Notes under the pieces: model-generated
The model's database searches: none
The model's input: only the letters and a program-made list of their open reading frames with translations
What the model was told of the DNA's origin: nothing
NCBI GenBank assembly: GCA_020634315.1
Contig: JACKBV010000002.1
Location: 165,286-229,285, forward strand
Length of the DNA stretch: 64,000 nt
Source of the DNA: Ardenticatenaceae bacterium
GTDB taxonomy: Bacteria; Chloroflexota; Anaerolineae; Promineifilales; Promineifilaceae
Direction: 5' to 3'
In this document: in pieces, positions 22,201 through 48,482 of the stretch
How the letters are laid out: each line of letters begins with the position of its first letter
How positions within the stretch are numbered: position 1 is the stretch's first letter
Translations under genes and position numbers: made by a program

Positions 22201-22395
22201 GATAATTGCTCTCCTATGTTACCAATCTCACCCGTACAGTGATGGATAGGATAATTCTATCTTTTGTAGTCGCTTTCCTCAAATCATTCAAACCAAATTG
22301 AAACCTCAAAACCTATCAGATTATGAATTCATGCACACATGATTGTTATCTCACCAAAACGACCCCGTGCGTGCCTTCTTTGCTACAATACGCGC

Positions 22396-25300
22396 ATGCC
22401 GAAACCGACACGCATTATGCAATGGCGCTACCGTCGCCTGAAACGAACGCGGCGCGGAGGACAGTCATTGCGCCGCTCTGGCTGTATTACCGGGCTGGTC
22501 TTGTTGGCCTTGTTCGGTGTTGTGCTGTTAATCGGTGTGGTGGGGGTAACGGCCGTTGCCGCCTATTTCACCCAAGACCTGCCCGCCATCACCGATCTCG
22601 AAAAACTGGGGCAAGATACCAGCGCCACCTTTGAAACCAGCAAAATCTATGCCTGGGGCGACCCCAAACCAGATGGCAGCCGTGATCTCGTCCTCATTTA
22701 CGAGGTCATCGATCCCCTCGGCGGCGACCGCCAATGGCTGACGCTGGAGCAAATTCCACAAAGTATCATTGACGCCACCGTTGCCATTGAAGACAAATCC
22801 TTTTGGGAGAATCCAGGGTATGATGTCGAAGGAATCGGCCGTGCCTTCTACGAATTCCTCATACTCGGTGGCGATGTTCAGGGCGGTTCCTCCATCACCC
22901 AGCAGCTCGTCAAAAACACCCTCATTGCCCCAGACCGCCGCGTTGTCGGCGACGATGTTGGCCTGGATGACTACCGCCGCAAAGCAGAAGAACTCGTCCT
23001 GGCGCGTCAGCTCACCCAAACCTACAGCAAAGAGCAAATTTTAGAGTGGTATCTAAACACCAACTTCTATGGCAACCTGGCCTATGGCATTGAAGCCGCC
23101 GCCCGCGTCTATTTCGACAAATCCGCCAGCGAACTGACCCTGGCGGAAGCTTCACTGCTGGCAGCCATCCCACAATCACCCGCCCTCAACCCCATCGACA
23201 ACCCCGACGACGCTAAAGAACGACAGGCACTTGTGTTAGAAGCGATGGTCAATGCCGGCAACATCACCCTGGAACAATCGGCAGCGGCTCAGTTTGCGCC
23301 GGTACAGGTAGCGCCGGGCATCGAAGAACGCTTTGACATCATCGCGCCCCATTTCGCGCTGTATGTGCGCCAGCAGCTAGAGCAAATGTTTGGGCCAGAA
23401 CTGGTGCTGCGCGGCGGGCTGCGTGTCTATACCAGCCTTGATTTACAAATGCAGCGGCAGGCGGAATGTGTGGCGCGTGCCCAGGTCGCCCAGCTTTCCG
23501 GGCAAGTCGGCGAACTGTTACCGGCCGATGAACGCGCCGCCTGCCCTGCCTTGAATTTTTTGCCGTCACTGAACAGCGCCGATGTCGGCGTTGATCGCAA
23601 TGTCAACAATGCGGCAGTCATTGCCCTCGACCCCACTACTGGCGAAATTCGGGCGATGGTCGGCAGTCTCAACTATTGGGATCAAACTATTGACGGCTCT
23701 TTCAATGTGGCCGTAGACGGGCTGCGCCAACCAGGATCATCATTCAAGCCGTTTACTTATCTCACCGCCTTGAGCCAGGGATATACGGCCGCTACCATGC
23801 TCCTCGACGTAGAAACCGACTTCGGCACGCCGTACAACGGCAGCGCCTACGTGCCACAAAATTACGACCGCCTATTTCATGGCCCCATGCGCCTGCGCCA
23901 GGCACTGGGCAACAGCTACAACGTGCCTGCCGTGCAGGCGATGAGCTGGGTCGGCGTCGATAAAGTCATTCGCACGGCACACAGCCTGGGCATTACCAGT
24001 TTGGACGCTGGCCCCAATGCGTATGGCCTCTCGCTGACATTGGGCGGTGGCGAAGTGAAACTGCTGGATATGGTCTATGCCTTCAGCGTCATGGACAACA
24101 TGGGCGTGATGATCGGTCAGCCGCGTGCAGAAACAGAGCAGCGGCTTGGCTTCCGCACACTCGATCCGGTGGCGATTTTGCGCGTGGAGGACAGCGAGGG
24201 CAACGTGCTCTATGAGTACAATCAGCCGCAGCGCCGCGAAATCTTAACGCCACAGTTGGCCTTTTTGATGAATGACATGCTCAGTGATCGCAGCGCACGC
24301 TGTGCCGCTTTTGGCTGCCCCAATGTGCTGGAACTACCAGATAATCGCCCGGCAGCGGTGAAAACAGGCACGACAAATGATTACCGCGATGCCTGGACAA
24401 TTGGCTATACGCCGCAGTTGGCTGTGGGCGTTTGGGTGGGCAACACCGATAACAGCCCCATGGATACGGTGCCGGGAAGCAAGGGGGCGGCACCTATCTG
24501 GCACGCACTGATGAGTTGGGGGCTGCAAGATGAACCGGTGCAGTTGTGGTCAGAGCCATCGGGCGTGGTGGAAAGATCGGTCTGCGACATCTCTGGTTTG
24601 CTGCCCACCAGTTTTTGCCCGACGGTCTCCGAATGGTTTATTGTGGGCACGGAACCGGCGGTGTTTGACAATATTTATCAGGAATTTGCCATTAACCGCG
24701 AAAACGGCCGTTTAGCCACCATCTACACACCGCCCGACCTGATTGAGCGCAAAATCTACAAAGTGTACCCGGAAGCGGCTGCGGATTGGGTGCGCGAAAA
24801 CGAGATTGAGCAGCCGCCAACGGAGTACGACACGATTAATGTGCCGCCAGAAGGGGGCGATGTCGCCATTTTGTCGCCGCGCCCCTTTGCCTATGTGCAA
24901 GGGCAGGTGGCGATTAGCGGCACGGTGAACATTGACAATTTTGCTTATTATCGGCTGGCTTACTTTGAAGGGCTGACGCCAACGGACCTACGCACCATCG
25001 CCGATACAGTGACGGAGCCGGTAGCAAATGGGGTGCTGGGCATTTGGGATGTGGAGAATTTGAATGGTTTGTACACGCTGCTGTTAACGGCCGTTCGCCA
25101 GGACGGCAGCTTCGAGGAAGTCAGTTTGCCCCTCACGGTAGACAACACCCCTCCCGCAGCGGAAATCCTTTTCCCGCTGCCCAACCAGGAAATTTTCACC
25201 GATGAAGAGTGGGTGATCATCCAGGCGCAGGCCAGCGATGACCTGTCGTTGGCCCGTGTCGAGTTTTTTGTGGACAACGCTGGCGTGCCCTTTGCCATCA

Positions 25301-25437
25301 GCACCGTGCCGCCGTTCACCGAGAAGTGGACGATTCGCGGCGCTGGCTGCCACAATTTCCGCGTGGTGGCGGTGGATGCGGCGGGAAATGAGACGGAGGG
25401 AACGGCCGTTCCCGTGTGCCTGGTCGAACGCAACTAA
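22396..25437 (+). CDS. pbpC: PBP1C-like bifunctional penicillin-binding protein (GT51 transglycosylase + transpeptidase + C-terminal Ig-like domains)
   Basis: GT51 motifs EDKSFWENPGYD, GGSSITQQLVKN and RKAEELVLARQLTQTYSKEQILEWYLN. Transpeptidase SSFKP (SxxK), SYN and KTGTTND. N-terminal TM. Start uncertain (ORF open from 22339). Confidence 0.8.
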   Translation: MPKPTRIMQWRYRRLKRTRRGGQSLRRSGCITGLVLLALFGVVLLIGVVGVTAVAAYFTQDLPAITDLEKLGQDTSATFETSKIYAWGDPKPDGSRDLVLIYEVIDPLGGDRQWLTLEQIPQSIIDATVAIEDKSFWENPGYDVEGIGRAFYEFLILGGDVQGGSSITQQLVKNTLIAPDRRVVGDDVGLDDYRRKAEELVLARQLTQTYSKEQILEWYLNTNFYGNLAYGIEAAARVYFDKSASELTLAEASLLAAIPQSPALNPIDNPDDAKERQALVLEAMVNAGNITLEQSAAAQFAPVQVAPGIEERFDIIAPHFALYVRQQLEQMFGPELVLRGGLRVYTSLDLQMQRQAECVARAQVAQLSGQVGELLPADERAACPALNFLPSLNSADVGVDRNVNNAAVIALDPTTGEIRAMVGSLNYWDQTIDGSFNVAVDGLRQPGSSFKPFTYLTALSQGYTAATMLLDVETDFGTPYNGSAYVPQNYDRLFHGPMRLRQALGNSYNVPAVQAMSWVGVDKVIRTAHSLGITSLDAGPNAYGLSLTLGGGEVKLLDMVYAFSVMDNMGVMIGQPRAETEQRLGFRTLDPVAILRVEDSEGNVLYEYNQPQRREILTPQLAFLMNDMLSDRSARCAAFGCPNVLELPDNRPAAVKTGTTNDYRDAWTIGYTPQLAVGVWVGNTDNSPMDTVPGSKGAAPIWHALMSWGLQDEPVQLWSEPSGVVERSVCDISGLLPTSFCPTVSEWFIVGTEPAVFDNIYQEFAINRENGRLATIYTPPDLIERKIYKVYPEAAADWVRENEIEQPPTEYDTINVPPEGGDVAILSPRPFAYVQGQVAISGTVNIDNFAYYRLAYFEGLTPTDLRTIADTVTEPVANGVLGIWDVENLNGLYTLLLTAVRQDGSFEEVSLPLTVDNTPPAAEILFPLPNQEIFTDEEWVIIQAQASDDLSLARVEFFVDNAGVPFAISTVPPFTEKWTIRGAGCHNFRVVAVDAAGNETEGTAVPVCLVERN

Positions 25438-31172: not shown

Positions 31173-32828
31173 ATGGACAAACGACGATCAGCCGCCACCA
31201 TTTTTCAAGAGCAACAAAACCAACAAATTCAACGCCAACGCAACATCGACCCTCAAGAAGAACCGTTCGCACAACTTGCCGCCTCTGCCCCACAAGGCCC
31301 ACCCCCGCCGCCTCTGGGCAGCGGCTTCAAAACATCAGAAGAGCTGCAACTTGAAAAAGAGCCTATTCGCGTGCGCGAAACCGGCTACGCCTTCTGGAAA
31401 CGAGTCATCGTTCCGCCAAACGCCTACGTCGTCCATACCCGCATCAAACGAGAACAGCCTGTCACCATCGGTCTTGGCGTCTCCTTTCGCTACAATCCAT
31501 ACACCGACGCCTATCTCGTCGTCCCCGCTGCCATGCAAACAATTGGCGTTGTTGCCAACTGCATCAGCAAAGAAAAACAAGGCATCAACATCCTCGCCTA
31601 TGTGCAGTGGCAAATTGACGATTTCGCCATCGCCTATCGCAAACTCGACTTTTCCGACAGCCGTGATCCACTGTCCATTGTCAACGCACAACTACGCGAA
31701 CAAGCCGAAGCAGGCATCAAAGACAAAATCGCCACCATGAGCGTTGAGGAAGTCCTCACCGACAAAGCGCCCATCATCGAAGAGCTAACCACCCGCCTCA
31801 AAGCTGTCACCGAAGGGCGTGGTCAAGGTAACAATGCCGACGAAGGGCTAGGCATCAAGATCGTCACCGTACAAATCCGCGAAGCACTCGTTAGCTCCGA
31901 GCGGCTGTGGGATCATCTCCAGGCTCCATTCCGCCATGAACAAGAAAAACTGGCCCGTGTCAGCCATCTCGCCATGCAAGACCAGATCAAACAAAAAGAG
32001 CTGGAAACCCATCAGCAAGCAGAAACCCGCGAAGCGGAAACGATGGTCGCCATTGAGCGCATCAAGCAAAGCAAACAAACCGAAGCGTCCGAAATCCGCC
32101 TTAACGAGGAGGCCACCCGCTTCACCAGAGAGCAAGAAACCGCACGCCAAAAAATCCAACTGGAAGAAACAACCACCGTTGCCCGGCGCGAATCGGAGCA
32201 GCGCCTCCACACACAGTCCGCACAAATTGAACAGGAGAAGCAGTTACGTGCGCTGCAACTCATCCACGACAAAACGTTAGCCGAAGCACAGCTGCAAACC
32301 GAAGCTGAGAAACAGCAGCAAAGCATGCAAACAGAACAGGCATTGCACGAAATTGCCGAAAACAACCGCCTGGAAGAACTGCGTGTACAGGCTGCCCAAC
32401 TGCATTTGGAACAAGAAAAGGCGCTCAAGACGCAAGAAGCCGCCTTACAACTGCTGCTGCAAGAGCAGGAAATCGCCGCCAAAGCACAAGCCTTGCAAGC
32501 GGATTTGGCACAACAACAACAAACGCACGCCGCACAATTGCTGATGGAGGAAGAATCCCTGCGGGTTAAACTGGCGGCGCAAGAGAAGGAATTGGAAATT
32601 GAACGGCTGCGCCAGGAAATACGCAATTTGGTGAATGAACGTGACTTGCTGCGCCACTTCATTAGCCAACTGCCAGAATTGGCCGCACATATGCCGGAAA
32701 TTCACGAATTACGTGTGCTGCAAACAGGCAGCGGCGATGCCGCGTTTGACAATATGGCCGCCTTTGTCACCAAAGCGATGGCCCTGGCGCAAAGTATGGG
32801 GCTGAAAATAGATAATCAGGCATCGTAA
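31173..32828 (+). CDS. SPFH/band-7 (flotillin-like) domain protein with a long Q/E/A-rich coiled-coil C-terminus
   Basis: N-terminal SPFH-like block (VVHTRIKREQPVTIGLGVSFRYNPYTDAYLVVPAAMQTIGVV ... ILAYVQWQIDD). About 300 aa of heptad-like EQ/AQ/LQ repeats. Confidence 0.6.
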   Translation: MDKRRSAATIFQEQQNQQIQRQRNIDPQEEPFAQLAASAPQGPPPPPLGSGFKTSEELQLEKEPIRVRETGYAFWKRVIVPPNAYVVHTRIKREQPVTIGLGVSFRYNPYTDAYLVVPAAMQTIGVVANCISKEKQGINILAYVQWQIDDFAIAYRKLDFSDSRDPLSIVNAQLREQAEAGIKDKIATMSVEEVLTDKAPIIEELTTRLKAVTEGRGQGNNADEGLGIKIVTVQIREALVSSERLWDHLQAPFRHEQEKLARVSHLAMQDQIKQKELETHQQAETREAETMVAIERIKQSKQTEASEIRLNEEATRFTREQETARQKIQLEETTTVARRESEQRLHTQSAQIEQEKQLRALQLIHDKTLAEAQLQTEAEKQQQSMQTEQALHEIAENNRLEELRVQAAQLHLEQEKALKTQEAALQLLLQEQEIAAKAQALQADLAQQQQTHAAQLLMEEESLRVKLAAQEKELEIERLRQEIRNLVNERDLLRHFISQLPELAAHMPEIHELRVLQTGSGDAAFDNMAAFVTKAMALAQSMGLKIDNQAS

Positions 32829-32863
32829 GTGTTGGGGTTGCACATGATGGGCAATTTGGTACA

Positions 32864-34216
32864 TTGCACTTCATGATAATCCGTAATCGACGAATCCTTT
32901 GCACACTTATGGCGCTGGTCTGGTTGTTCACGGCTTGCCAGACAGCGCCGACAGTTGAAGAAGAAGTTGGGGTGGCAACGGCCGTTTCCACCCCAACACA
33001 GCCCCCCACAACCACACCCCAACCCTCTTCCACGCCCACCCCTGATGTACAAATCATCATTACCACAACTCCGACAGCGACAGTAAACAGTGCGCCAACG
33101 CCCCCCTCTCTCGATTATCTGGCAGCCGCCATCAACGCCGAACTCGCCAACTTCGATGGCCTGAGCAGCTATGTCATCCGCGACCTGCGCACAGGCGAAC
33201 AAATCAGCCACGAACCCGACCTTGCCATTGCCGGCATGAGCCTGATCAAAATCCCCATCCTCATCAACACCTATCGCGTGCTGGATGGCCCACCCGACAT
33301 TGAGCAAACCAAGCTCATCACCCAAACCACCGCCCTTTCCAGCAACTTTGCCGCCAATTTGCTGCTGCAAGTCATCGCTCGCCAGCCCAACAGCTACATT
33401 GGCGCTGACATTGTCACCGAGTCGATGCGCGAACTGGGCCTTTACAACACATTTATGGCTGTGCCCTACGACGCCGAACCCAAGCCAGATCGTCCGCAAA
33501 CTTACCTCACGCCAGCCAACCGGCGCACCGACATGACCACCCATCCAGACATCTACCGCCAGACCACAACTGGCGACCTGGCAGCACTGCTGCTGATGCT
33601 TTATGACTGCGCCACAAACAGCCAGGGGCTGCTGCTGGACACCTATCCTGGCGAACTAACAGCAGGCGAGTGCCAGCAAATTCTCGACATGCTCCAGCTT
33701 AATGAATTGGTGAAATTACTGGAAGCGGGTTTGCCCCCCGGCATCACCATCGCCCACAAAATTGGCTATATCGACGACACCTATGGCGATGCCGCGATTG
33801 TCTACTCGCCCAATGGTGATTACATCCTGGTTTTGGCTCTCTACGCCCCCGTCTGGCTGGAATGGGGCATTGCTTCCCCCCTTTTCACAAGCATCTCGCA
33901 GCTTGTCTATAACCATTTCAACGACCCGGACGCCTACACAACGGCCGTTCTCGCTGCCCCACCTGATTTGCCACCCACCGTCACCCCGGCACCCACGCCC
34001 GATTTGCCACAAGCCATTGTCACCGGAACCAACGGCGTTGGCTTGACACTGCGCAGTGCGCCCGGTGGAGCCGAACTCGCCATCTTGCCCGAAGGCAGCG
34101 TGGTCAGTTTGCTCGACACGCCGCCAAACACGCTCAACGGCATTACCTGGCAGCACATCCGCACCGCGGATGGCACAACTGGCTGGGTTGGCGCGGATTA
34201 TCTGACGGGGCAGTAG
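32864..34216 (+). CDS. Lipoprotein serine hydrolase of the class-A beta-lactamase-like fold with a C-terminal SH3b-like domain
   Basis: Lipobox LFTACQ. SxxK in IAGMSLIKIPIL. C-terminal GVGLTLRSAPGG ... WVGADYLTGQ. Confidence 0.6.
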   Translation: MHFMIIRNRRILCTLMALVWLFTACQTAPTVEEEVGVATAVSTPTQPPTTTPQPSSTPTPDVQIIITTTPTATVNSAPTPPSLDYLAAAINAELANFDGLSSYVIRDLRTGEQISHEPDLAIAGMSLIKIPILINTYRVLDGPPDIEQTKLITQTTALSSNFAANLLLQVIARQPNSYIGADIVTESMRELGLYNTFMAVPYDAEPKPDRPQTYLTPANRRTDMTTHPDIYRQTTTGDLAALLLMLYDCATNSQGLLLDTYPGELTAGECQQILDMLQLNELVKLLEAGLPPGITIAHKIGYIDDTYGDAAIVYSPNGDYILVLALYAPVWLEWGIASPLFTSISQLVYNHFNDPDAYTTAVLAAPPDLPPTVTPAPTPDLPQAIVTGTNGVGLTLRSAPGGAELAILPEGSVVSLLDTPPNTLNGITWQHIRTADGTTGWVGADYLTGQ

Positions 34217-34258: not shown

Positions 34259-34759
34259 CTAGCCGATTTCGGCCAGCACTTCATCGCGCAGCACGCTTTG
34301 GTTGGTGCTGACATGAACGGCCGTTACCACACCACCGCGTGGCGAGCGGATTTCATTCTCCATCTTCATCGCTTCCAGCACCAACAACGGCTGCCCGGCC
34401 ATCACCGTCTCGCCAGCCTGCACCAACACCTGTGTCACCAACCCTGGGATGGGTGCTTTGACGCGCCCGTCACGGCTGCGCGGACGCGCCACAGCCGCCT
34501 CTAAGTCGCGCACTTCCAAGTTGTGCAAGCCGCTGTATGTTTTAATCCAGCGCAACTGCTCGTCAAAGACAATTTCGTAGGGACGGCCGTTTACAATCAT
34601 CCAATCAATATTCGCCACTGAATGATTCGGGGGCGGAACTTGCACCGACAAGGGCACGCCATCTACCAGCACGGTAACGGCCGTTCCATTCCAATGCATC
34701 ACATCCAACGCTACCTCAAACAACTGCTCTTCAATCGTTACCAATAACTTATTCATCAT
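34259..34759 (-). CDS. Biotin carboxyl carrier protein (biotinyl domain) of acyl-CoA carboxylase
   Basis: GQPLLVLEAMKMENEIRSP biotinylation motif (AMKM). GAGGAGG Shine-Dalgarno before ATGATG at 34759/34756. Confidence 0.8.
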   Translation of the reverse strand: MMNKLLVTIEEQLFEVALDVMHWNGTAVTVLVDGVPLSVQVPPPNHSVANIDWMIVNGRPYEIVFDEQLRWIKTYSGLHNLEVRDLEAAVARPRSRDGRVKAPIPGLVTQVLVQAGETVMAGQPLLVLEAMKMENEIRSPRGGVVTAVHVSTNQSVLRDEVLAEIG

Positions 34760-34766
34760 CCCCTCC

Positions 34767-36248
34767 TCACGACGCCAGCCGCCGACTGGCACGATGCCAG
34801 CCCGACTGCGTCCGTGGCGACACCGTTGGGCTTTCCGGCGCATTGCGGCGCAAATACAAAATTGCCGCTATCGCCGCCAGATCACGCAAATGCTCTTGCA
34901 AATCCACAAATTCACCCAACGGCTGCCGCAGCAAATCCGTCGTATACGCCCCTTTGATAAACGCCGACGACGTAAAAACACGCTGCAACACAGGCAAATT
35001 CGTCGCCAACCCGGTCAATTTCAAACCTTCCAACGCCCGCTGCATTCGCTGCAAACAAAGCTGCCGGTCAGCGCCCCACACCGACAATTTGGCAAGCAGC
35101 GGGTCATACGTATCAGGAACCCGACAGCCACAATACACATATGTGTCTACGCGAATCTCTGGCCCGCCCGGCAAACGCATCATGTCCACCTGTCCGGGGC
35201 TGGGCAAGAAATGGTTCCAGGGGTCTTCCGCGTTGATCCGGCACAGCATCGCCCAGCCTTGCGGTTGCACATCCTGCTGCGTCCATCCCAATGGCTCCCC
35301 GGCAGCAATGCGAATTTGCTCGCGCACCAGGTCCAGGCGCGTCACCAATTCTGTCAATGGATGCTCCACCTGAATCCGCGCTTTAATTTCAGTAAAGTAA
35401 AATTGCCCGGCTTCATCGACGAGGAATTCAACGGTTCCGGCATTTTGATAATTAAAGAGACGGGCAATGGCAACGGCCGTTTCACACAACACATGCCGCT
35501 GCTCCGGCGTCAAACTCGGCGAAGGCGTTTCCTCCACCACCTTGCGATTCCCCAGCACCAACGACCCCTCCCGGTCGCCCAAATGCACCAGATTCCCTTG
35601 CCCATCCCCCAACACCTGCACCGCCACCTGATGTGCCGGTAAAATCGCCCTTTCCAGATACACCTCTTGGCTGCCAAAAACCACACGCGATTCCGCCTGC
35701 GCCCGCTGCATCGCCCGCAGCAATTGCTGCGGCGAACGCGCCAGCCGTTCCCCTGGCCCACGCCCGCCATTACACGACTTAATCACCAGCGGATATTCCA
35801 ATTCACCCGCCGCCGCACGCAGCGCCGCCAAATCATCAACACCAAACGAAATCGGCGAACTCATCACCGTAGGAAAGCCAGCGGCGCGTACCGTTGACAA
35901 AGCCGCCAATTTATCGCGCACACCTTGCACAACCTCCACCGGTGGGCCAATAAAAGCCAGCCCCGCCATCTGGCAAGCACGAATAAAACCCACATCTTCC
36001 GCCAGAAAACCATAACCGGGATGGATGGCATCCGCGCCACAGCGCTGCGCCAGCTCAATGATCGCCGCGCCATCCAAGAAACCTTCATCGCTCACCAGTT
36101 CCACACATTCATCCGCCAGGCGCACATGCAATGATTGCTGATCGGCCGCTTCATACACAGCAACGGCCGTAATCCCCATTTCACGGCACGTATGCACAAT
36201 CCGCACCGCAATTTCCCCCCGATTGGCAATGAGTATCTTCTTAAACAT
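34767..36248 (-). CDS. accC: Biotin carboxylase subunit of acetyl/propionyl-CoA carboxylase
   Basis: MFKKILIANRGEIAVRI ATP-grasp N-terminus. Stand-alone biotin-carboxylase length of about 490 aa. Confidence 0.9.
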   Translation of the reverse strand: MFKKILIANRGEIAVRIVHTCREMGITAVAVYEAADQQSLHVRLADECVELVSDEGFLDGAAIIELAQRCGADAIHPGYGFLAEDVGFIRACQMAGLAFIGPPVEVVQGVRDKLAALSTVRAAGFPTVMSSPISFGVDDLAALRAAAGELEYPLVIKSCNGGRGPGERLARSPQQLLRAMQRAQAESRVVFGSQEVYLERAILPAHQVAVQVLGDGQGNLVHLGDREGSLVLGNRKVVEETPSPSLTPEQRHVLCETAVAIARLFNYQNAGTVEFLVDEAGQFYFTEIKARIQVEHPLTELVTRLDLVREQIRIAAGEPLGWTQQDVQPQGWAMLCRINAEDPWNHFLPSPGQVDMMRLPGGPEIRVDTYVYCGCRVPDTYDPLLAKLSVWGADRQLCLQRMQRALEGLKLTGLATNLPVLQRVFTSSAFIKGAYTTDLLRQPLGEFVDLQEHLRDLAAIAAILYLRRNAPESPTVSPRTQSGWHRASRRLAS

Positions 36249-36322: not shown

Positions 36323-37870
36323 TCACATCGGCGAAATCCCATGCTTGCGGGGGACATGCCGGTCGCGCTTTGACAGCGTCACTTCCAGCGAACGAATCAA
36401 GATGCGGCGTGTGTCGCGCGGTTCAATCACATCGTCAATCAAGCCGCGTGACGCCGCCACATAAGGATTGTTGAACTTCGTCTCGTAATCCTGCACCAAT
36501 TCTTGCCGCTTCAGATGCGGATCGGCCGCTGCTTGCAAATCGCGGCGGAACAAAATGTTCACCGCCCCTTCCGCGCCCATCACGGCCAATTCCGCATTCG
36601 GCCACGCATAGAGCAAATCGCCGCGCAATCCTTTGCTGCTCATCACACAGTACGCGCCACCATAACTCTTGCGCAAAATGACCATCAACTTGGGCACAGT
36701 CGCTTCGCTGTACGCATAAATCATGCGTGCCCCATTGCGAATAATGCCGCCATACTCCTGATCTTTGCCGGGCAAAAAGCCAGGCACATCTTGCAAAGTG
36801 ATAATGGGAATGTTGTACGCATCGCAAATGCGAATGAAGTGCGCCGTCTTGATGCTGGCCTGAATGTCAATGCAGCCAGCCAACACCATCGGCTGATTGG
36901 CGACAAAGCCAACTACCCAACCATTTAAGCGGCCAAAACCGACCACCATGTTTTCTGCCCATAACTGGTGAATTTCAAAGAAACGGCCGTCATCCACCAA
37001 CGTCGTAATCACCCGCCGCACATCATACGGTTTGTGCGGGTCTGTCGGCACAATTTGCTCCAATTCCGGGCAGCGCCGCTGCGGATCATCGAGCGGCTTG
37101 ACATAAGGCGGGTCATCCTGGTTATTTGATGGCAAATAACTGAGCAGCGTGCGCACCTGCTGCAAACATTCGCGGTCATCACGCGCCAAAAAGTGGCAGA
37201 CACCGCTTTCCTGGCTGTGAATCAGGCCACCCCCCAGCTCCTCAAGCCCCACTTCCTCCTGCATCACCGATTTCACCACATCTGGGCCGGTGATGAACAT
37301 GTAGCTGTTTTCCGTCATGAACACAAAATCGGTCAGCGCTGGCGAATAGACCGCGCCACCGGCGCAGGGTCCCATAATCACCGACAACTGCGGGATAACG
37401 CCAGAAGCCTCGCAGTTGGCGTCAAAAATCTGCGCATACCCGGCCAAACTGTCAACGCCTTCCTGAATGCGTGCCCCGCCTGAATCATTCAGGGCAATAA
37501 AGGGTGCGCCATAGCTCAAAGCCATTTTCATCGCCTTGACAATCTTCTGCGCGTGCATTTCCCCCAGCGACCCGCCCATGACAGTGGCATCTTGGGCAGC
37601 AACAAAGGCGCGACGGCCGTTTATTTCACCAAACCCCGTAATCACACCATCGCCATAGCGGGACGTCTTGCCACCGACATACGTCTCCACGCGCGGCGTC
37701 ACCAACGTATCAATCTCCGTAAAGGTATCCGGGTCAAACAGCAAATTCACCCGTTCGCGTGCCGTCAGCCGTCCCTTTTTGTGCTGCTGCGCCACATCTT
37801 TTTCCGTGCCGTAAGCAATCTCCTTACGTTCGCGCAACGCTTTTACGTAAGCTTCCATCTCTTGCGCCAT
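36323..37870 (-). CDS. Acyl-CoA carboxylase carboxyltransferase (beta) subunit, PccB/AccD5-like
   Basis: EKDVAQQHKKGRLTARERVNLLFDPDTFTEIDTLV is the canonical PccB N-terminus. GGAGG Shine-Dalgarno then ATG 37870. Confidence 0.9.
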   Translation of the reverse strand: MAQEMEAYVKALRERKEIAYGTEKDVAQQHKKGRLTARERVNLLFDPDTFTEIDTLVTPRVETYVGGKTSRYGDGVITGFGEINGRRAFVAAQDATVMGGSLGEMHAQKIVKAMKMALSYGAPFIALNDSGGARIQEGVDSLAGYAQIFDANCEASGVIPQLSVIMGPCAGGAVYSPALTDFVFMTENSYMFITGPDVVKSVMQEEVGLEELGGGLIHSQESGVCHFLARDDRECLQQVRTLLSYLPSNNQDDPPYVKPLDDPQRRCPELEQIVPTDPHKPYDVRRVITTLVDDGRFFEIHQLWAENMVVGFGRLNGWVVGFVANQPMVLAGCIDIQASIKTAHFIRICDAYNIPIITLQDVPGFLPGKDQEYGGIIRNGARMIYAYSEATVPKLMVILRKSYGGAYCVMSSKGLRGDLLYAWPNAELAVMGAEGAVNILFRRDLQAAADPHLKRQELVQDYETKFNNPYVAASRGLIDDVIEPRDTRRILIRSLEVTLSKRDRHVPRKHGISPM

Positions 37871-37990
37871 TCTCAATCCTCCGCTCCAGGTAATGCAATT
37901 TGGCAAACCACACTACCTGTATCCCATCCGGGATACTGTTGTTTTTTCTATGTACTGCTGTAATTTCCGTAAAACTTTGTATTCGTGGCT

Positions 37991-38686
37991 CTAAGCTGCC
38001 AGCGTCAGGACAAATCCATCCAGAACACGCCACCACCCTTGCAGCGGCGGCGCAACCCGTAAACGGCTGGCGTCTAACTCGATGGCAAACGGCGTCCACG
38101 CTTGTGGTGGTACGGCCGTTACCGCAAACAAACACGTCACACAACGCGTATCAACCATCAACCCAACCTGCAACGCCTTCAACGCCGCTTCCTTCGCACT
38201 CCAAATCGCCGTCACCAGCGTCGCCTGCATCTCCGGCACAGCTTGCTGCACCAAGTCCTGCTCCACCGCCGTAAAATAATCCTGCACAAACTGCGGCGAA
38301 CGCGGCGCAATTTGCTCAATATCCGCGCCAATCGGCGGATTGCGCCGCGGCAGCGCCGCGCAAAATGCATGGCTGTTTGAATGACTGATGGAAATGCTCG
38401 GCAGGTCAGCCCGTGCCACAGCGCCACATTGTACCACCGGAGCATGGGTATGACCGTTCAACACCTGCAACTCCGCCAACGGAACCTCGGTGCCACAGCG
38501 CTCGCGAAGCACCTGTTGCAGCAAATGCTTTGCCGTCCAACGCCCTAACAACCAATCCCGCCGCCGCTTTTCTGTGCGCAATCGGGCAAAATGTGCCGCC
38601 TCTGCCGCTCCCAGCAATCCTGCCGGGGGCATGCCCTGCGCCAACCCTGGAAACGCTGCTGCCGTTTGTACAAGCCAGTTGATCAT
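37991..38686 (-). CDS. Sfp-type 4'-phosphopantetheinyl transferase
   Basis: GADIEQI (G-x-D-x-E), FTAVEQD ... WSAKEAALKAL (W..KE...K motif). Immediately downstream of the PKS. Confidence 0.8.
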   Translation of the reverse strand: MINWLVQTAAAFPGLAQGMPPAGLLGAAEAAHFARLRTEKRRRDWLLGRWTAKHLLQQVLRERCGTEVPLAELQVLNGHTHAPVVQCGAVARADLPSISISHSNSHAFCAALPRRNPPIGADIEQIAPRSPQFVQDYFTAVEQDLVQQAVPEMQATLVTAIWSAKEAALKALQVGLMVDTRCVTCLFAVTAVPPQAWTPFAIELDASRLRVAPPLQGWWRVLDGFVLTLAA

Positions 38687-38758: not shown

Positions 38759-41700
38759 TCACGACAGCGGTCGTGCCACCGTGCGATAACCTTGCAGTTC
38801 AACAAACACCACGCCATCGTCGTCGACAACCTGCCCGGCAAAAGTCTCGCCATCGTCGTCTGTGCGCAGCAGCGCGTAAAGACGTTTGCCGGCCGCCTCT
38901 TGTGGCTGTCGCTGCGCCGTGACCGCGCCAATGCCCAAGGGGAAACCCATTGCCTGCTTTACTTCTTGCGTCCACAACGCCGCCGCCTGGAAACAAAGTT
39001 CTACCAATCGCGGAGCCATTAACGAAGTGGCATCTGCCGGGTCGGTATTGGGCGGCAAGGTGGCAGGCAGCAAGCAAACGGCCGTTTCCCCCACCACCTT
39101 TGCGCGTTCAATCACCTGATACGCCGGGCCATGAAAGAAAGATTCGTAAATCGTCTCCGCCACAATCGGCAGCGATTCCGCCGCCGGTGGCGTGAAGGCA
39201 ATCGTTGGCGCTGCCATGGCCGCCGTGCCCAAATGCACCTGCGCCGCAAAATGCTGCTGCGTTCGCTGCGGCAGCCCGTCGCGCACCGGTTTGGTGACGG
39301 AATGCAGCGTTGTTTGCGCCAACAACTGCCCCGGCGCAGGCAGTTCCAGCACAACATTCAGGTGCAGTGTGCGCGGTTCATTGCGGAAAAACTTGAATGC
39401 GCCGGACATGGTGACATCGGTAACGGCCGTTACCCGTCCCTCAGGCATCGCGGCCAACGACGCCGCCACCAACGCGGCCTGCGCCATCGCCTCCGTCGCC
39501 ATCACCCCTGGCAGCCAAGGCGTGCCCGCATCGGGGGCGTGGTCATACAAAAAGGGTTGGCGCGTCGGGTCAAGCGTCGTTTCCACCGCCAATCCACCGT
39601 ACAACATCGCCCCTTGCAACGTGCCCACCATCAGCAAATCGCCAAACTTCTCTTGCCGCCACGCATTGGCCTGCGCCACATCCAAACCACCCGTCTCATC
39701 CCATTCCTGTGTCAACAGGCCCAGCGCACCGCCAACTACCAGTTCGCCGCCGCCATACAGCAGTTCGCGCCGCACAGTGGGAATTCCCACCGCCGTTGGC
39801 AGCATTTCGATGCCTGCCATCTCCATAATCTTGGGAATCGAGCCACGCGTCGCCATGCCAATTTCGCCCCAGGCTGTCCAGTCCAGAGCAATGCCGCGCG
39901 TCTCCGGCCGCCAGCGGCGCAGGCTGCTTGTCACCTTGCACAGCAAATCATTGGCCGCGCTGTAATCCGTCTGCCCATTGTTGCCAAAACGCCCGGCCAC
40001 CGAGCTAAAAACGACGGTCGCGGCGATAGGCAGATCGTGTGCCGCACGCAGCAAATTGAAGAAGCCATCCGCCTTCACATCAAACACAAGGTCGAATTCG
40101 CGTGCCTCTTTTTTGTCCAACGACCGGCTGATTTCCAGCCCGCCAGCATGAACGAGGGCGTCTATTTTGCCATAGCGAGTGCGGATGTCGGCGATAACGG
40201 CCGTTACCGCTTCCCCATCCAACAAATTAACGCTGTGATAATGAGCCGTACCGCCAGCCGCTTCCACCGCCTCAATCGCCCGCAGCGCCGCTTCCGTCCG
40301 CTCGATTGCCAATAACTGTTTCTCAATCAGCGCCGGTGTGGGCCGTTCGCCAGCTGCTTTAGCCGCCGCAATCAACTGCTGCTTCAACGCCTCTTTGTCG
40401 CTGCGGAACAACTGCACCTGCGCGTCATGCCGCGTCGGCGCGGCAACCAGGTCAAGCAGGTAAAAGATGCCGCCGCTGGCTGCTGCCAGGTCGGCAACGA
40501 TGGCGCTGGTGATGCCGCCAGCCGCCCCGGTGACGACAAAAACCGTGTGCTCATCGAGCGTCAGCGCCGGGGTGTCGGGCAACGGCCGTTCCTGCAAACC
40601 AATCGCCACCCGCTGCTCGCCCACATAGCCCACTTCCACCGCACCGGGGTCTGTTTCCGTCTCGGCCAACAGCGCATCCGCGAAAACGGCCGTTTTCCGA
40701 CTCAGTTCAAAGTCCACAGCCTTCACCAACACATCAGGGCGCTCACGCTTGTACGCCTTGGCAAAGCCAACCACAGCCCCGCCCAAAGGAGCCGTTGCCC
40801 CTGCCGCGCCATAGCCATGCTGCCCGCCCAGGCGCGTAGCCGTCACCAGGAACGTGCCCGGCTGGTTCACCACGTCATACAAAGCCCGCATGGTGGCATA
40901 CAAATTCTTGCTGCGCTGACGATTCAATTCGCGCCAGGCGGCCAGGTCAAGCTCCATCAAATCAGGCTCCGCATCCAACGCCGCCAGCCAATACACCCCT
41001 TGAATCGCGCCAGCATGACGCCACGCAGTCACCTGTGTCACCAACTCCGCCGTTGGCCGCGCCACATCCAAAGCCAACACAGTCGCCCCACGCTTTTCCA
41101 GGCGGCTGATCACGGCCTTGCCGACACCGCCCTGGTCGAGAGCCACAAGCACGCGGCTGTCCGCGCCCAACGTGACCCCCGTCGGTTTACACCAGGCCAA
41201 CGCCGGTCGCAGCACGGCCACCGGCATACGCCGCGGCACACGATTGGCATTTTCCAGGGAAGACGGGGTGATGCGGGTTGAAGCAGGCACAACGCCCGCC
41301 ACTTCCCCCATCACCCCGTCAACTTTTAAATCCGGACGCATTTCGTAAACAAAACCAATCACCTTTTCCAGCGTCGTGTAATCGCGCAAAGCCAAATCGT
41401 CGCGGCGCGGAATGTCAAACTCGCTGCGAATGGCGGCAAATGTTTCTGCCTGTTTCACCGTGTCAATGCCCAGGTCTGCTTCCAAATCCAGGTCTAGCTC
41501 CAACATATCAGGCGGATAACCCGTTTGCTTGGCGACAATTTCCAGCACTTTGGCGGTCACTGCGTCAAATGAACCCGCGTCGGGCGTGGATGGCAGTGTG
41601 GCAACGGCCGTTTCGCTCACCACCTCCGGTTCAGCCGCCACTTTTTGATTGCCCAAATCGGGGCGCATCTCGTAGACAAAGCCAATCACCTTCTCCAGTG

Positions 41701-44700
41701 TGGCATAATCGCGCAATGACAAATCATCGCGGCGCGGAATGTCAAACTCGCTGCGAATGGCGGCAAAGGTTTCCGCCTGTTTCACCGTGTCAATGCCCAA
41801 ATCCGCTTCCAGGTCGAGGTCAAGATCGAGCATATCGGTGGGATAGCCGGTTTGCTCGGCCACAATTTGCAGCACTTTGTCGGCAACGGGATCAGCCACG
41901 GCCGTTTCCAGGGTTGGCTCCGGCAGCGGTGCTGGCGGGGGCGGCGCAGAGGGAACGGCCGTTTCTGCCACCACCTTTTCCACAACCGGCATACGCACCG
42001 GCTCTGGGGCAACGGCCATCGGCGCGGCTTGCACTGGCGGCTCCGGAATAACCATCCGCGCAGGCGCGGTTGTGGGCGTTGGCGCCCCATCCTGCCCCGT
42101 CAAAGTGCGCATGATGGGGCCAGTTCCCGGCTGCCAGCGGCTGGGGAGCGGGTACCGCTGCGGCACGCCGTTGGCCTGGATGCGTAAGATGCGTTTGTTA
42201 ACGGCCGTTTCCACCTGGTCATAGCCGCTGATGTCCTCCAGCCAGCGCCGATATTGCGCCGGACTGTCCACCCGATCCAGTGCGCCAGGGATGCGCCGCG
42301 TCAACGTCATCGCAATTTGTGAACCAAAACCCGCCGCCAGATGCAGCGCATACTGCACCGGATAACGTCCGCCGCGGCTCAAGTTCAACGGCCCCAGGTC
42401 TGGGTCAACTTCCCGGAAATTGGGCACAGGCGGCACAATGCCATATTCCAAAATCTTCACGGCAATGACATCTTCCACACCGACACCCATTGGATGGCCG
42501 GTAAACCCTTTCGTATTGGCGACAATGATTTCACGCGCCACGTCGCCAAACGTGTGGCGCAGCGCTTCCACTTCGGCGGCAGCGCTGCCACCGCGTGCCG
42601 GTGTGTATGTCTCGTGCGACATAAAGACCATCTGCGGAGCCATGGCCTGCCGGTTCAAGCCAAAACGGCGCTCGGCCGATGTCACCAGGCTGTTCATCAC
42701 CTGGGCGATGTGGTGTACGTCCAGACGCGTGCCATGAAATGCGCTGTTGTTTGTTTCACTGGCAAGCAGTTCGACAACGCCGCGCATCCCGCGTTCGCGC
42801 ATGGCATCTTCGCTCTCCACAATCAGCCCCGCCGCGCCCATGCCCATCAACGTGCCATGACGGCGACGATCAAAGGGCAAGGCGACTTCGGCGACACGAT
42901 CTTCGGTCGCTGCCGCACCAACGGCCAGGAAACCGGCACCGACCCATTCCATCAAGTTGTCTCCGGTCACATTGTCGGCGGCAATGATGATGACGCGGCG
43001 GCAACGGCCGTTGCGAATCCAATCTTCAGCAATCGCCACCGCCTGCGCCGTGCTGGCACAAGCCGCATTCACCTGCGTATTGGGGCCGCGTGCGCCGATG
43101 TACTCGGCAAACTGGCTGTGTCCCATTGCCAGGATACGGAACAAAAAGCGGCGATCAAAAATGTATGGCTCGCGCTGCAACGCCTCGCGCAAAGTGTTGA
43201 TGCGCCGATCTAGTTCGCGCAGCGTGTCGGCGTCGCGGGTATAGGCACGCACATCTTGCAGCATTTGCAGTTGATCAAGCCGGTTTTGGAAGGTGAAATA
43301 GCGCCCCATTTCCTCGGCAAAGCGGTCGCCGCCGGGGAAGGCGCTGGCAAAAATGACGCCCGTTTCATCGCGCAATGGTTCTGGCAGCAGCCAGCGATCC
43401 GGCAAAAATTTGTCGGTGGTGGTGCGGCGGAAGGTTTGCACGAGAGGGATACCCGCCTCGCGCAGGGCGTCAAAACCGGCGGCCATTGCCAACTGCGTCG
43501 TGCTGTCCAGCGCCTCGACGAGTTTTTCTGGCACGCCGTACTCTTCGGTTAAGTTGAAATAGCCGGGGCGACCTGCCAACTTGATGACATCGTCGGGGTC
43601 GTTAATGGTCTCGAAACGGCCGTTTCCCTCTGCATCCTTCACCAGGCGCGTGATTTGCTTGGCTAAAATGCGCTGGCGAAAGCGCTCCGGAATCAGGTCT
43701 ACAAACTGCTCGCCGCGCAAAATCCGCAGCGCATTATCCGGGTCCATCACCGATTTTTCCGCGCCGGGCAGCCCCAACCCCGTGCCGCTGATAACCACCG
43801 AGCCGCTGGGGACGGCATTGCGGTCATAGGCCAGCAGTGGCGGCTGCACAGCAGGTGCTTGCGCCGTCGCCGCTTGCTGAATTGCTTGCGTCAATAATTC
43901 GACAACGGCCGTTAACGAGCCGCCATTTTGTGATAAAGCCATGTCCTCATTCCTCTCTACTGATTCGACCAACACCGCTGCCTGCTCGCCGACTGTTTGC
44001 CCATATCCCGCCGCATACAGCGCACATAACGCCATATTCAAACTCGGCAAAGTCCCCGTCTTGGGGTGATTGGTCAAAATCGGCAGCACATCCGTTTGCG
44101 CGGCAAACACATCACGGGCAAACCCTTGCAGCGCCCGCTTGGGGCCAACCTCGACAAAGGCACGCACGCCAGCGTTGTAGAGCGTGTGCAGCCCCTTCAC
44201 CCATTGCACCGGCGAGGCAACTTGCTGTTGCAGCACATCCTTAATGCCCTCCACCGTTGTCGGGTAAAAGCCGCCAGTCAAATTGGCAACAAGCGGCAGT
44301 TTGGGGGGAGCGATGTGCAGCCGGTCAAGTACCTGGCGCAGGGGTTTGCTGGCCGGAGCGACAATTTCTGTGTGGAAGGCGTGGCTGACGGGGATGGGAA
44401 TGGCGCGGTATCCTTTTTCGGTGAACAGTTTAACGGCCGTATCCACCGCTTTACTCGCCCCACCAATCACACTCTGGCTGTGACTGTTAATATTGGCAGG
44501 AACAACATAGCCATCCACCTCGGCTAACGTTGCTTCCACCACATCCAATGGGGCGAGAATGGCCGCCATACGGCCGTTATCCGCCACATTGACCTTGCTC
44601 ATCTCATCGCCACGCGCGGCCGCCGCTTCCAGCGCATCGGCAAATGGCATCACGCCCGCGGCAATCAGCGCCGCATATTCGCCCAGCGAATGCCCCATCA

Positions 44701-46780
44701 CCATGTCCGGCTTAAAGCCATACGTCTCCAGCAATTTCAACATGGCAATGTCCAGCGTCAACATCGCTGGCTGCGTGATTTCCGTCTGCATCAAAGCCAG
44801 TTCCGCCTGCATCATCGCCTGGCGGTCATCGCTGTCCACAAAAATGTAATCGGTGAGCGGCTTGCCCAAAATCGGCGTCATGACGCGGTCGGCCTCGGCA
44901 AACACCGTGGCGACCACCGGCGACAAGGCCACCAGCTCGCGCCCCATATTCACATACTGGCTGCCCTGTCCGGGGAAAAGAAAGGCTAACTTGCCCGGTG
45001 CGGTGCCACGCCCACGAAAAATGCCTTGCGCCTCCAGCGCTTTCCACGCTTTGGCATCGTCGCTCTGGCAAAGGCGCTGCGCTTTTTGCAGCCGTCCCAG
45101 CAGTTCCTCGCGGTCGCCAAAATCAATCAGCAAGCGTTCGGGGGATTGGAGAACGGCCGTTTCCGGCACAACTCGCGGCGGCGTCCAGCCAGCCTGCACA
45201 TCTCGCAGCGCCTTCTCCACCTGCGCCCGCAGGTCAGTGGATGAGGCGGCACCCAACGCCAAAATACCGCGCACAGGTGTTGGCACCTTATCCGCAGCAC
45301 GTTGGCTCCCGACCTGTAAATTTCCATTTCCCCGTGCCTGCGCCGCCGTCGTTTGGCGCTGCGCGGCCAACATCCCCGGCACATGTTCCTCCAACACGAC
45401 GTGAAAATTCGTGCCGCCAAAGCCATAGGCACTGACACCACAGCGGCGCGGTGCGCCAGCCGGTTTTGTCCAGGGCGTAGCCTCGTGAACGAGGTAAAAA
45501 GGTGTGTTGGCAAAATCAATGTTGGGATTGGGCACGGCCGCATTTAACGTGGGCGGCAGCGTCTTGTGGTACAACGCATACACCGCTTTCAGCAGCCCGG
45601 CAGCGCCTGCGCCTGCTTTCAAATGGCCGATGTTGCTCTTGGCCGAACCGAGGCCAATGCTGTGGCGTGGCGCGGCATGGAAAATTTGCGCCAGACTTTC
45701 GACTTCGACCACATCGCCGACGCGGGTGCTGGTTCCGTGCGCTTCCACCAGGGTCGCCGTTGCCGGGTCCAGCCCGGCGCTTTCCCAGGCACGTTGAATG
45801 GCAAGCTGCTGCCCCAACGGATTGGGCGCGGTGATGCCTTTGCCTTTGCCGTCGCTGGCGCCACCAACGCCGCGAATGACGGCGTAAATGCGGTCGCCAT
45901 CTCGTTCGGCGTCAGCCAATCGTTTTAGCAAAAAGGCGGCGGCCCCTTCGCCCATGACAAACCCGTCTGCGCCATCGCTAAACGGCCGTGTTCCGGTCGC
46001 GCTCAATGCGCCAATTTTGCAAAATTTGACGAAGCTGGAGATGCCCATGTTGCGGTCGACGCCACCGGTAACGGCCGTATCCACCTTATGCTCCGTCAGC
46101 AGTTCAATGGCCGCTTCCAACGCCGCCAGGCTCGAAGCACAGGCAGCATCCGTGATGAAATTCGGGCCGCGCAAATCCAGCACATTCGCCACACGCCCGG
46201 AAACGATGTTGGGCAGTTCGCCCGGCATAGAATCTTCAGTGATGGGCGGGAAGACATCGGCAATGACACCCTGATACCCACTGAGAATGGCCTGGCGCGT
46301 GGCGGCAGGCAGTCCGGCAAATTCGGGCACGCTTTCCAGGGCGTGCGCATATTCGGGAAAAGCAATGCGCTGATTGGTGATGTAGTGGAGTTCGCCCCCC
46401 ATAGCCGTGCCCAAGATAACGGCCGTTCGTTCCGTGTTTAACGGCTTTTGCGGATACCCATAATCGGCCAACGCCTCCGCCGCAACCGTGAGCGCCCACT
46501 GCTGCCCCATATCCATCGCGTCCGCCACCTTTGGCGGAATGCGGAAACGCTTCCAGTCAAAATTAAACCCGCGCACCCAACCACCAATTTTGCTGTATGT
46601 TTTGTCTGGCGCTTTGGGGTCAGGATCATAATAATCGGCAATCGACCAGCGGTTTGGCGGCGTCTCGGTAATGCTGTACCGCTTATTGACAATATTTTGC
46701 CAAAACGCCGCCGCGTGCAAAGCATCTGGCAAAATGGCTCCCACCCCGACAATGGCAATCGCGCGTTCTGCACTATCCAT
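38759..46780 (-). CDS. PUFA-synthase/PfaA-like iterative type I polyketide synthase. Inferred domain order: KS - AT - second KS-like - ACP - ACP - KR - DH (2673 aa).
   Basis: KS1 DAACASSL / EAHGTST / KSNIGHL. AT GHSLGE / AFHT. KS2 [14 protein letters not shown] / SHETYT / KGFTGHPMG. Two about 85-aa carrier-like repeats (...[23 protein letters not shown]). KR Rossmann plus YSAAN. PKS-type [24 protein letters not shown] Shine-Dalgarno before ATG 46780. Confidence 0.9.
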
Positions 46781-46844: not shown

Positions 46845-48482
46845 CTATGCCGGGAACGCTTTCACGAGCGCCTCGACCGCACAATCCATGTCGGCAATCA
46901 TGCCCGCCTGTGCCTGGTAAATGGCGGGTAAATTAAGCGAGTTCGCCAGGTTGGGGTCGCTTTGCCCCGCGCCAATGGCCCATTGCAAGCCATCGGCAGC
47001 CACCTTTAGCGCCGCCTGACGGGCATAAATGCGTGCCAGGGTTTGGCGTGTCTCTGTGGTCAGGGGAATGGCTGAGGTGGGGTGGCTTGTAACGCGGGCA
47101 GTGAAGGTAGCGGCCGTTTCCGCCCAGGCCACCCATTCACCCAAACGAAACAACATGTGCTGGTTGCGCGTGAGCCGATCCAGACGGCAGCGCTCCATAA
47201 TGGTCGCCAAGGCACGCAGCGCCAACGCCGCCACATCAGCCCCATTTTGTGGTTCTTCGGCATGAACGGCATCCAACCGTGCCGCCCAATCCTGGTAATA
47301 AGCTCCGCGCGACTTGAGATGCTCCTGCCAACGATCACGAGCAATCGTCCATTCCATAATTTCTGATGTGCCTTCGTAAATCGTTGTGATGCGCACATCT
47401 CGTTTGATTTTTTCCACCATGTATTCTTTGGTGTAGCCATAACCGCCCAACGCCTGGATCGCATCTTCGGCGGCGCGGTTGCCCGCTTCGGTGGCCGCAT
47501 ATTTGGCGACAGCCCCTTCCGTTTGCAGTCCGTGCCCCCCTTCTGCGTCCAGTCGTTCCGCTACCCATTCGATATAAGCACGCGCCGCTTCCAGGCGTGC
47601 GGCATTGGGTACGAGTAGTTTGTGCGTATACCCTTGTTTCTGGCTGAGCGGCGCACCCGCTTGCACGCGCTCCTGGCTGTAGCGAATGGCGCGACGCAGT
47701 GCTTCCCAGCCCGCGCCCAGGCCAAATGCGCCAACCATCAGGCGGGTGTAGCCAAAAACAGCTTGTGCCTGCGCCAACCCTTTGCCTTCCACGCCACCAA
47801 CGAGCCGATCCGCAGCTACGTGGACATCTTCTAAAAAGAGGGCGGCTGTGTTGCTGGCACGAATGCCGTGTTTGTCTTCCGGTTTGCCTTTGCCAAAGCC
47901 AGGGGCATCGGCCTCGACAATGAACCAGGAGGGGCCACCGGGCGCATTGGCGAGGATGGTATAGATGTCGGCGACGCCGCCGTTGCTGATCCATTGTTTA
48001 CGGCCGTTTAGCGTATACCCCGTCACCACCCCATCTGTGAGCACCGGTTCCGCCTTCGTGCTCAACGAAGCGAGATCGCTGCCTGCCTGCGGCTCAGTTG
48101 CCCCATAAGCCACCAGCAGCGATTCTTCGGCAACGCGCCCCATCCAGTGCCGCTTTTGTTCCTCCGTGCCCCCGACACTGATGGGATCTGTCCCCAAAAA
48201 AGTCGCCAGAACACCGGTGGCGATGCCCAGATCAATGGCGGCCATTAACTCTGAAACACGGTAAATATCATACGCGCCACCACCCAAACCATCATATGCT
48301 TCAGGAATAAAAAGCAAATGAAGACCTAGCTGCATAGGATCATATAATTCTTGCAATACCTGGCGGGGAAATTCGTCATTGTGATCTAGCTCAATGAGAT
48401 AATCAGGCGTGAGTTTACGCTCCGCATACTTTTTGAGCGTGTCCAAGATCATCTCGCGGGTCTCATCGTCCAATCCGGGCAT
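46845..48482 (-). CDS. Acyl-CoA dehydrogenase family protein with a C-terminal extension
   Basis: [15 protein letters not shown] (ACAD signature). FAD/substrate regions. 545 aa. The stop lies 64 bp upstream of the PKS start. Confidence 0.85.

Follow-up and report, generated by a model that had tools for sequence, protein, structure and literature searches.

A 64-kb window (64,000 nucleotides, the whole stretch of DNA analysed) from a metagenome-assembled genome (MAG) of an Ardenticatenaceae bacterium, contig JACKBV010000002.1, encodes a type I synthase whose two tandem acyl carrier protein (ACP) domains both have threonine at the position of phosphopantetheine attachment. From the observed residue, its register, its conservation, the alternation of Ser and Thr among relatives and the linkage to a phosphopantetheinyl transferase (PPTase) gene, we infer, with a probability of roughly 0.7, that the Thr-bearing ACPs are genuine working carriers and that Thr1665 and Thr1774 are phosphopantetheinylated by the neighbouring, co-evolved PPTase. 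A Ser acceptor is treated as a defining and invariant feature of acyl, peptidyl and aryl carrier proteins, and motif definitions, genome-mining logic and the design of null mutants (S-to-T or S-to-A) rely on it. An earlier note on this DNA, made from the sequence alone, had left three readings of the Thr residues side by side. Comparative inference best supports loading on Thr, because of the conservation, the Ser/Thr alternation, the PPTase linkage and fusion and the failure to find an alternative acceptor or carrier; non-functional domains replaced by a trans-acting ACP are disfavoured, and a systematic sequence error is refuted.

Threonine at the attachment position of both carrier domains

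The synthase and the elements that carry the finding are as follows.

38759..46780, minus strand: type I synthase, 2673 amino acids (aa), with domain order ketosynthase (KS), acyltransferase (AT), second ketosynthase-like domain (KS2), ACP, ACP, ketoreductase (KR), dehydratase (DH) (open reading frame, translation, Pfam)
41645..41908, minus strand: ACP1, aa 1625-1712 (translation, Pfam, phmmer, AlphaFold2 model, Foldseek)
41786..41788, minus strand: Thr1665 codon ACG, phosphopantetheine-attachment position of ACP1 (aligned to the Ser of solved ACPs)
41318..41581, minus strand: ACP2, aa 1734-1821 (translation, Pfam, alignment)
41459..41461, minus strand: Thr1774 codon ACG, attachment position of ACP2 (nucleotide sequence)

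Translation bore out the earlier note's claim that both tandem ACPs have Thr, encoded by ACG, at the attachment position (T1665 and T1774). The two copies proved less alike than the 90 % DNA identity it had estimated: the DNA repeat, 240 nt long and spaced 327 nt, is 84 % identical over its length, or 81 % as protein.

The register of the residue, which the note had wanted checked, was upheld by phmmer alignments of ACP1 to Escherichia coli AcpP, the PigH doublet ACP, Streptomyces ACPs and other solved carriers, which set Thr exactly on the Ser of their DS(L/I) motif. Two stretches of the synthase matched the Pfam family PP-binding (PF00550; 48.2 bits, cut-off 20.8), and neither contains the conserved acceptor Ser of the D-S-(L/I) motif. 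An AlphaFold2 model of ACP1, built on 27 family ACPs, had a mean pLDDT of 86.6 and the canonical ACP helical bundle, with helix II beginning at domain residue 41, which is the Thr. Foldseek comparison of this model with the PDB gave top matches that were all ACPs (rmsd 1.4-1.6 A, TM 0.7-0.88). The modelled domains thus look structurally ordinary, with Thr at the acceptor position. They share the four-helix fold and the D-L-G-x-D that precedes helix II with canonical ACPs, in which the nucleophile is Ser (E. coli AcpP Ser36) rather than Thr. The closest solved sequence, the PigH doublet ACP of prodigiosin biosynthesis (PDB 5y08, E 1.2e-10), is likewise a tandem and has the motif DLG(V/I)DS(I/V), but has Ser at the attachment site and belongs to a different pathway and protein context.

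Misregister of the Thr was ruled out by the alignments to solved ACPs together with the model and its Foldseek matches. A different Ser as the true acceptor was also ruled out, as no conserved Ser column was present in 391 unique domains or in alignment A2. A six-frame phmmer search of the 64-kb window with E. coli AcpP and the window ACP as queries returned the synthase domains only.

Conservation among orthologues

A search of 5.8 billion proteins yielded 119 full-length orthologues of the synthase and one near-identical fragment of 1745 aa without an ACP motif. The orthologues are mostly from Chloroflexota (Anaerolineae, Ardenticatenaceae, Promineifilaceae, Caldilineaceae, Roseiflexus, Oscillochloris, Chloroploca and Kouleothrix), with one Leptospiraceae MAG among them, and the protein is named 'SDR family oxidoreductase' in the PGAP-derived records encountered. 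A protein identical to the window synthase over its whole length (100 %) is deposited as MCB8965647.1 (MAG, Ardenticatenaceae bacterium). The number of tandem ACPs ranged from one to six. By analogy, this range resembles the tandem ACPs of polyunsaturated fatty acid (PUFA) synthases, in which ACP number tunes throughput (PMC3098273).

Thr was present in every ACP motif of the 119 orthologues (458 of 458, strict motif count), a constancy well outside what chance would give; a looser regular expression gave 462 motifs, including a few false positives from the KR region (ELGPDT...). The same pattern was found at the DNA level in 36 loci drawn from one-genome-per-species contigs, which include MAGs labelled Polyangiales, Blastocatellia, Thermoanaerobaculia and 'Clostridia': all 128 motifs read DLG(I/V)DTVKQAE. 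All four Thr codons are used (ACG 83, ACC 27, ACA 11 and ACT 7), which amounts to synonymous drift with no replacement at the Thr, although the Ser codon TCG is a single step from ACG. The isolate Roseiflexus castenholzii DSM 13941, whose chromosome is finished, encodes Rcas_2879, and the five ACPs of this protein all have Thr as well.

These data bear directly on the suggestion that the Thr codons result from faulty sequencing, assembly or annotation of the window MAG and that the true codons are for Ser. The window does come from a metagenome assembly, tandem repeats are prone to error, and in a near-identical MAG the synthase gene is split in two at the repeats. However, the occurrence of the same Thr in hundreds of independent assemblies, in independent loci that use all four Thr codons and in the finished R. 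castenholzii genome refutes a systematic sequence error, and the probability that we assign to an artefact is negligible.

The split gene is itself an observation on this region. In the MAG concerned, which is 99 % identical, the synthase is annotated as two adjacent proteins of 1745 aa (P0100) and 1038 aa (P0278), which correspond to MEZ4643951.1 and MEZ4643952.1 on the same 98.8-kb contig; the break falls in the tandem-ACP region and is probably due to a frameshift or an assembly problem at the repeats.

Serine and threonine in the wider family

To sample the wider family, KS2 and both ACPs were used as the query of an exhaustive HMMER search against 1.84 billion cluster representatives. This returned 1354 proteins at E<1e-30, a number that is an upper bound for the size of the family, and the best 150 of them (34-70 % identity) were inspected for the acceptor residue. 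Among 442 ACP domains in these 150 representatives, Thr was found in 423 and Ser in 11. Five further domains had D, G, E or P at this position; four of them were inspected, and in each the helix-II motif had decayed as well, so that on sequence they look like pseudo-ACPs. Extra ACP-like domains that look decayed were seen in P0148 (third), P0169 (third), P0150 (fifth), P0250 (fourth) and P0256 (fifth); these have D, G, E or S as the acceptor and lack the VKQAE motif of helix II, and the window protein has no such copy.

The Ser-bearing members include one protein with six Ser-type ACPs (P0161), one with two (P0254) and a mixed array of Ser, Thr, Ser (P0239). A second mixed array, of Ser, Thr, Thr (P0289), was found with the ACP region of P0239 as query. 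The locus of P0289 (L043) has the conserved order ACAD, KS, AT, KS2, ACPs and KR/DH, where ACAD is a flavoprotein of the acyl-CoA dehydrogenase family, at 3971-5536 of that locus. The mixed arrays suggest that Ser and Thr do the same job.

Sister tandem-ACP families recovered by the same search are of Ser type, with the motifs DLGIDSIKRVEIL (the PUFA-synthase kind) and DLGIDSVKLGEVF. Gln occupies the position three residues after the Thr in 452 of 455 domains; the same position has Gln in 13 of 272 Ser-type domains, which are mostly ACPs of the sister families. This coupling indicates a coordinated remodelling of the recognition helix and not an isolated substitution.

The neighbouring phosphopantetheinyl transferase

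37991..38686, minus strand: Sfp-type 4'-phosphopantetheinyl transferase, 231 aa (Pfam ACPS 3.7e-17, orthologue alignment, Sfp profile match)

The presence of an Sfp-type PPTase gene directly downstream, reported in the earlier note, was confirmed; the gene starts 72 bp past the synthase stop. Its product matched Pfam ACPS at 62.8 bits (cut-off 25); against the HetI model it scored 35 bits, below the cut-off of 370. A search of the PDB with the single sequence gave only a weak match to AcpS, and Sfp was reached by profile search: a profile of 23 PPTase orthologues matched both pseudo-halves of Sfp (1qr0/4mrt; E 5e-11). In the window PPTase the motifs ISHS, G-x-D-I-E and WS-x-KE-x-x-K align with those of Sfp, and H102, D122, E124, W162, S163, K165, E166 and K170 are invariant in the 23 orthologues; H102, D122, E124, E166 and K170 correspond to H90, D107, E109, E151 and K155 of Sfp. 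The window PPTase shares both pseudo-halves and the catalytic motifs with the Sfp-type (group II) enzymes Sfp, HetI, PfaE and AASDHPPT, but it is very distantly related to them, has a presumed substrate that bears Thr and is fused to the synthase in some relatives.

Among related loci, 26 have the PPTase gene directly after that of the synthase. Fusion of the PPTase to the synthase C-terminus was seen in 22 of the 150 best representatives (including P0146, P0148, P0159, P0161, P0169 and P0175), and 21 of these 22 proteins have Thr-only ACPs. In such Thr-only fusions the PPTase, attached in cis, has no Ser-type carrier within the same chain, and no other comparative evidence speaks as strongly for the Thr-ACPs being its substrate.

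Weighing of alternative explanations

The Thr-ACPs might never be pantetheinylated and instead be structural or scaffold domains, in a synthase that uses CoA thioesters or a Ser-type ACP encoded elsewhere and served by the neighbouring PPTase. The S36T variant of E. coli ACP is not phosphopantetheinylated and does not complement an acpP deletion (PMC3340395), and therefore canonical PPTase chemistry does not automatically accept Thr. The family of the ACAD encoded upstream usually acts on CoA thioesters, and the view of the genome spans 64 kb, with which a distant ACP is compatible. A scaffold would, however, have no need of the DLG(I/V)DT(V/I)KQAE recognition motif, which is nearly invariant across phyla and under very strong purifying selection in helix II. 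In well-conserved domains the acceptor position is filled by Thr or Ser only. What relaxation looks like can be seen from the truly decayed copies that some arrays contain, where the motif is lost entirely. The PPTase is adjacent to Thr-only synthases or fused to them in cis, the copy number of one to six behaves like that of functional tandem ACPs, and the window holds no further ACP. Unmodified domains are for these reasons an unlikely explanation. It is less likely still that the Thr bears something other than standard phosphopantetheine, such as an acyl group in direct oxoester (O-acyl) linkage or another prosthetic group derived from CoA or a nucleotide. The strict residue change and the altered helix-II surface with its Gln could mark a changed chemistry, and the PPTase is distant from the solved enzymes. 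Yet this enzyme keeps every catalytic and CoA/Mg2+ motif of Sfp (ISHS, G-x-D-x-E and WS-x-KE-x-x-K), the same family has Ser-bearing members and mixed arrays, and KS, AT, KR and DH are ordinary thioester-handling domains.

Some observations weigh against loading on Thr, the inert S36T variant among them. The mixed arrays come from metagenome assemblies, and the synthase of L043 is broken into many open reading frames, a hint of noisy assembly. The Ser-type ACPs in the mixed arrays are also fairly divergent and might have a separate origin. A comparison of the 23 PPTase orthologues with Sfp and with the single fused PPTase of a Ser-type synthase (P0161) did not identify a residue responsible for acceptance of Thr, a comparison without power because it had one Ser-type example.

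Domain architecture and relation to known synthases

The remaining domains of the synthase are listed below; no enoyl reductase (ER) domain is present.

45371..46765, minus strand: KS1 domain, aa 6-470, active-site Cys214 (Pfam ketoacyl-synt, Ketoacyl-synt_C, KAsynt_C_assoc)
44105..44983, minus strand: acyltransferase domain, FabD-like, aa 600-892 (Pfam Acyl_transf_1 2.9e-41; NCBIfam fabD 3.2e-62)
41981..43783, minus strand: second KS-like domain (KS2), approximately aa 1000-1600 (second ketoacyl-synt stretch; ACP_syn_III/thiolase matches at aa 1232-1273)
39866..40537, minus strand: ketoreductase domain, aa 2082-2305 (Pfam KR 2.1e-21)
38780..39595, minus strand: polyketide synthase-type dehydratase domain, aa 2396-2667 (Pfam PS-DH 3.7e-11; weak PKS_DH_N match)

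On its domain order the window synthase is a match to the uncharacterised 'Type R secondary lipid synthase', which consists of a pfaA homologue with KS-MAT-CLF-ACP(3-6)-KR organization followed by a PPTase gene, has no known product and was reported in Roseiflexus, Koribacter, Solibacter and Elusimicrobium (Shulse & Allen 2011, PMC3098273). An acetyl-CoA carboxylase gene was noted beside the Koribacter cluster in the same study (PMC3098273). Pfam domains of the window protein give the order KS-MAT-(KS-like/CLF)-tandem ACP-KR, and the PPTase gene directly downstream is also held in common. Rcas_2879, one of the founding members, is orthologous to the window synthase, and the representative of its cluster is 68 % identical to the query. 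Points of difference are that the window protein has two ACPs (one to six in the family), a Cys-retaining 'CLF' and a C-terminal DH, and that the window system and its relatives add an ACAD-family gene as a conserved upstream partner. In KS2, Cys1241 is kept at the active site within the motif NAACAST (codon 43058-43060, minus strand) and is accompanied by candidate His residues (MSHETYT and GFTGH); the NAACAST/NSACAST motif is present in 137 family proteins. Judged by these residues, the 'CLF' domain of the Type R description may be a second active ketosynthase and not a Cys-less chain-length factor.

Among the open-access and bioRxiv full texts searched, Shulse & Allen 2011 was the only work found on this synthase family. 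That paper (PMC3098273) does not describe the Ser-to-Thr change, with no occurrence of either 'threonine' or 'serine'. Neither a Thr-linked phosphopantetheine nor the Thr feature of Type R synthases was found in the texts searched.

PfaA and the bacterial PUFA synthases (TIGR02813) share the N-terminal KS-AT, tandem ACPs, KR, DH and a dedicated Sfp-type (PfaE-like) PPTase with the window system. The PfaA motif DLGIDSIKRVEIL is related to that of the window ACPs but has Ser where these have Thr, and the window synthase has an extra KS-like domain between the AT and the ACPs. By sequence criteria the window synthase is not a true PfaA, because it scored below the cut-off of TIGR02813 (927.9 versus 1010.1, with the best stretch at model positions 7-898 of 2582) and because no pfaB, pfaC or pfaD genes, and in particular no PfaC-like KS-CLF-DH protein or PfaD enoyl reductase, were found among the adjoining open reading frames of at least 150 aa.

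The synthase gene is overlapped by several long open reading frames that lie in its other frames or on the complementary strand, such as 41278-42051 (plus strand), 41782-42090 (minus strand) and 41852-42187 (plus strand). These are most likely spurious products of G+C-rich sequence inside a clearly coding, conserved gene.

Gene neighbourhood

46845..48482, minus strand: ACAD-family flavoprotein, 545 aa, directly upstream of the synthase (Pfam, NCBIfam)
36323..37906, minus strand: acyl-CoA carboxylase carboxyltransferase subunit, malonyl-CoA supply (Pfam Carboxyl_trans 1e-190; conserved in 24 loci)
34767..36248, minus strand: biotin carboxylase (Pfam; conserved in 24 loci)
34259..34843, minus strand: biotin carboxyl carrier protein (BCCP) (NCBIfam; conserved in 22 loci)

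The conserved gene order is ACAD, synthase, PPTase, carboxyltransferase, biotin carboxylase and BCCP. Of 42 related loci (L001-L042), 38 have the ACAD gene directly upstream of the synthase, with 47-90 % identity, and the flavoprotein is often better conserved than the synthase. Because the synthase has no ER domain, the flavoprotein may act as a trans enoyl reductase or a desaturase on ACP-bound chains.

Proposed mechanism and implications

The system is envisaged as an iterative, PfaA-like Type R lipid synthase with two working acyl carrier domains, in which the 4'-phosphopantetheine arm would be joined to the hydroxyl of T1665 and T1774 instead of Ser. The arm would come from CoA and be transferred by the adjoining Sfp-type PPTase, with the Mg2+/Glu-base mechanism usual for such enzymes. 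The family-specific helix-II surface D-T-V/I-K-Q-A-E travels with the Thr, a hint that ACP and PPTase have co-evolved as a pair in which the additional methyl group is tolerated. The holo-ACPs would then shuttle malonyl and acyl intermediates among KS1, AT, KS2, KR and DH, with the ACAD-like flavoprotein probably acting in trans and malonyl-CoA being supplied by the products of the downstream carboxylase genes.

What appears to be new here, on the comparative evidence, is a change of acceptor residue in a carrier-protein/PPTase system, one that extends over a very large family and runs contrary to the textbook invariant. We know of no earlier natural O-phosphopantetheinyl-threonine, and to our knowledge the catalogues of protein modifications list O-phosphopantetheinyl-serine only; a family-wide Thr acceptor would thus be the first. 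It would extend PPTase chemistry to secondary alcohols, and the Thr phosphodiester should be more resistant to beta-elimination than that of Ser. Canonical AcpS would be unable to serve the Thr site, and Sfp enzymes perhaps could not either, so that carrier and transferase would form a naturally insulated pair, which might be put to use as an orthogonal ACP/PPTase system in protein labelling and pathway engineering. In Chloroflexota and in further phyla, carrier and transferase may combine with the ACAD partner and the carboxylase genes into a type I fatty-acid synthase that is self-contained. The broadest form of this proposal is tentative: that Thr-linked phosphopantetheine is natural and obligatory throughout a phylum-spanning family, that it is installed by a dedicated PPTase clade recognizing a D-T-V-K-Q-A-E helix II, and that the whole may constitute such a synthase. 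The analysis also draws attention to a lipid synthase system that is abundant and uncharacterised and occurs in Chloroflexota (among them wastewater filaments and hot-spring phototrophs), Acidobacteriota, Myxococcota and others. R. castenholzii DSM 13941 is a culturable host of a Thr-ACP synthase, which makes the proposal directly testable.

Other genes in the window

Beyond the carboxylase genes are two open reading frames without a Pfam match, at 31173-32828 (plus strand, 551 aa) and 32816-33544 (minus strand, 242 aa). For the latter, a counterpart in the corresponding position, with 50 % identity, was seen in the closest relative (L038) and in no other. Farther away, the window encodes a 1924-aa bacterial alpha-2-macroglobulin (A2M) with MG2, A2M, TED and bMG10 domains (14879-20653, plus strand) and, near it, a 1032-aa bifunctional transglycosylase/transpeptidase of PBP1 type (22339-25437, plus strand). 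A pairing of A2M with PbpC occurs in other bacteria, and the A2M/PBP1-type pair of the window resembles it, with a class I/II aminotransferase gene (20980-22200) on the other strand between the two.

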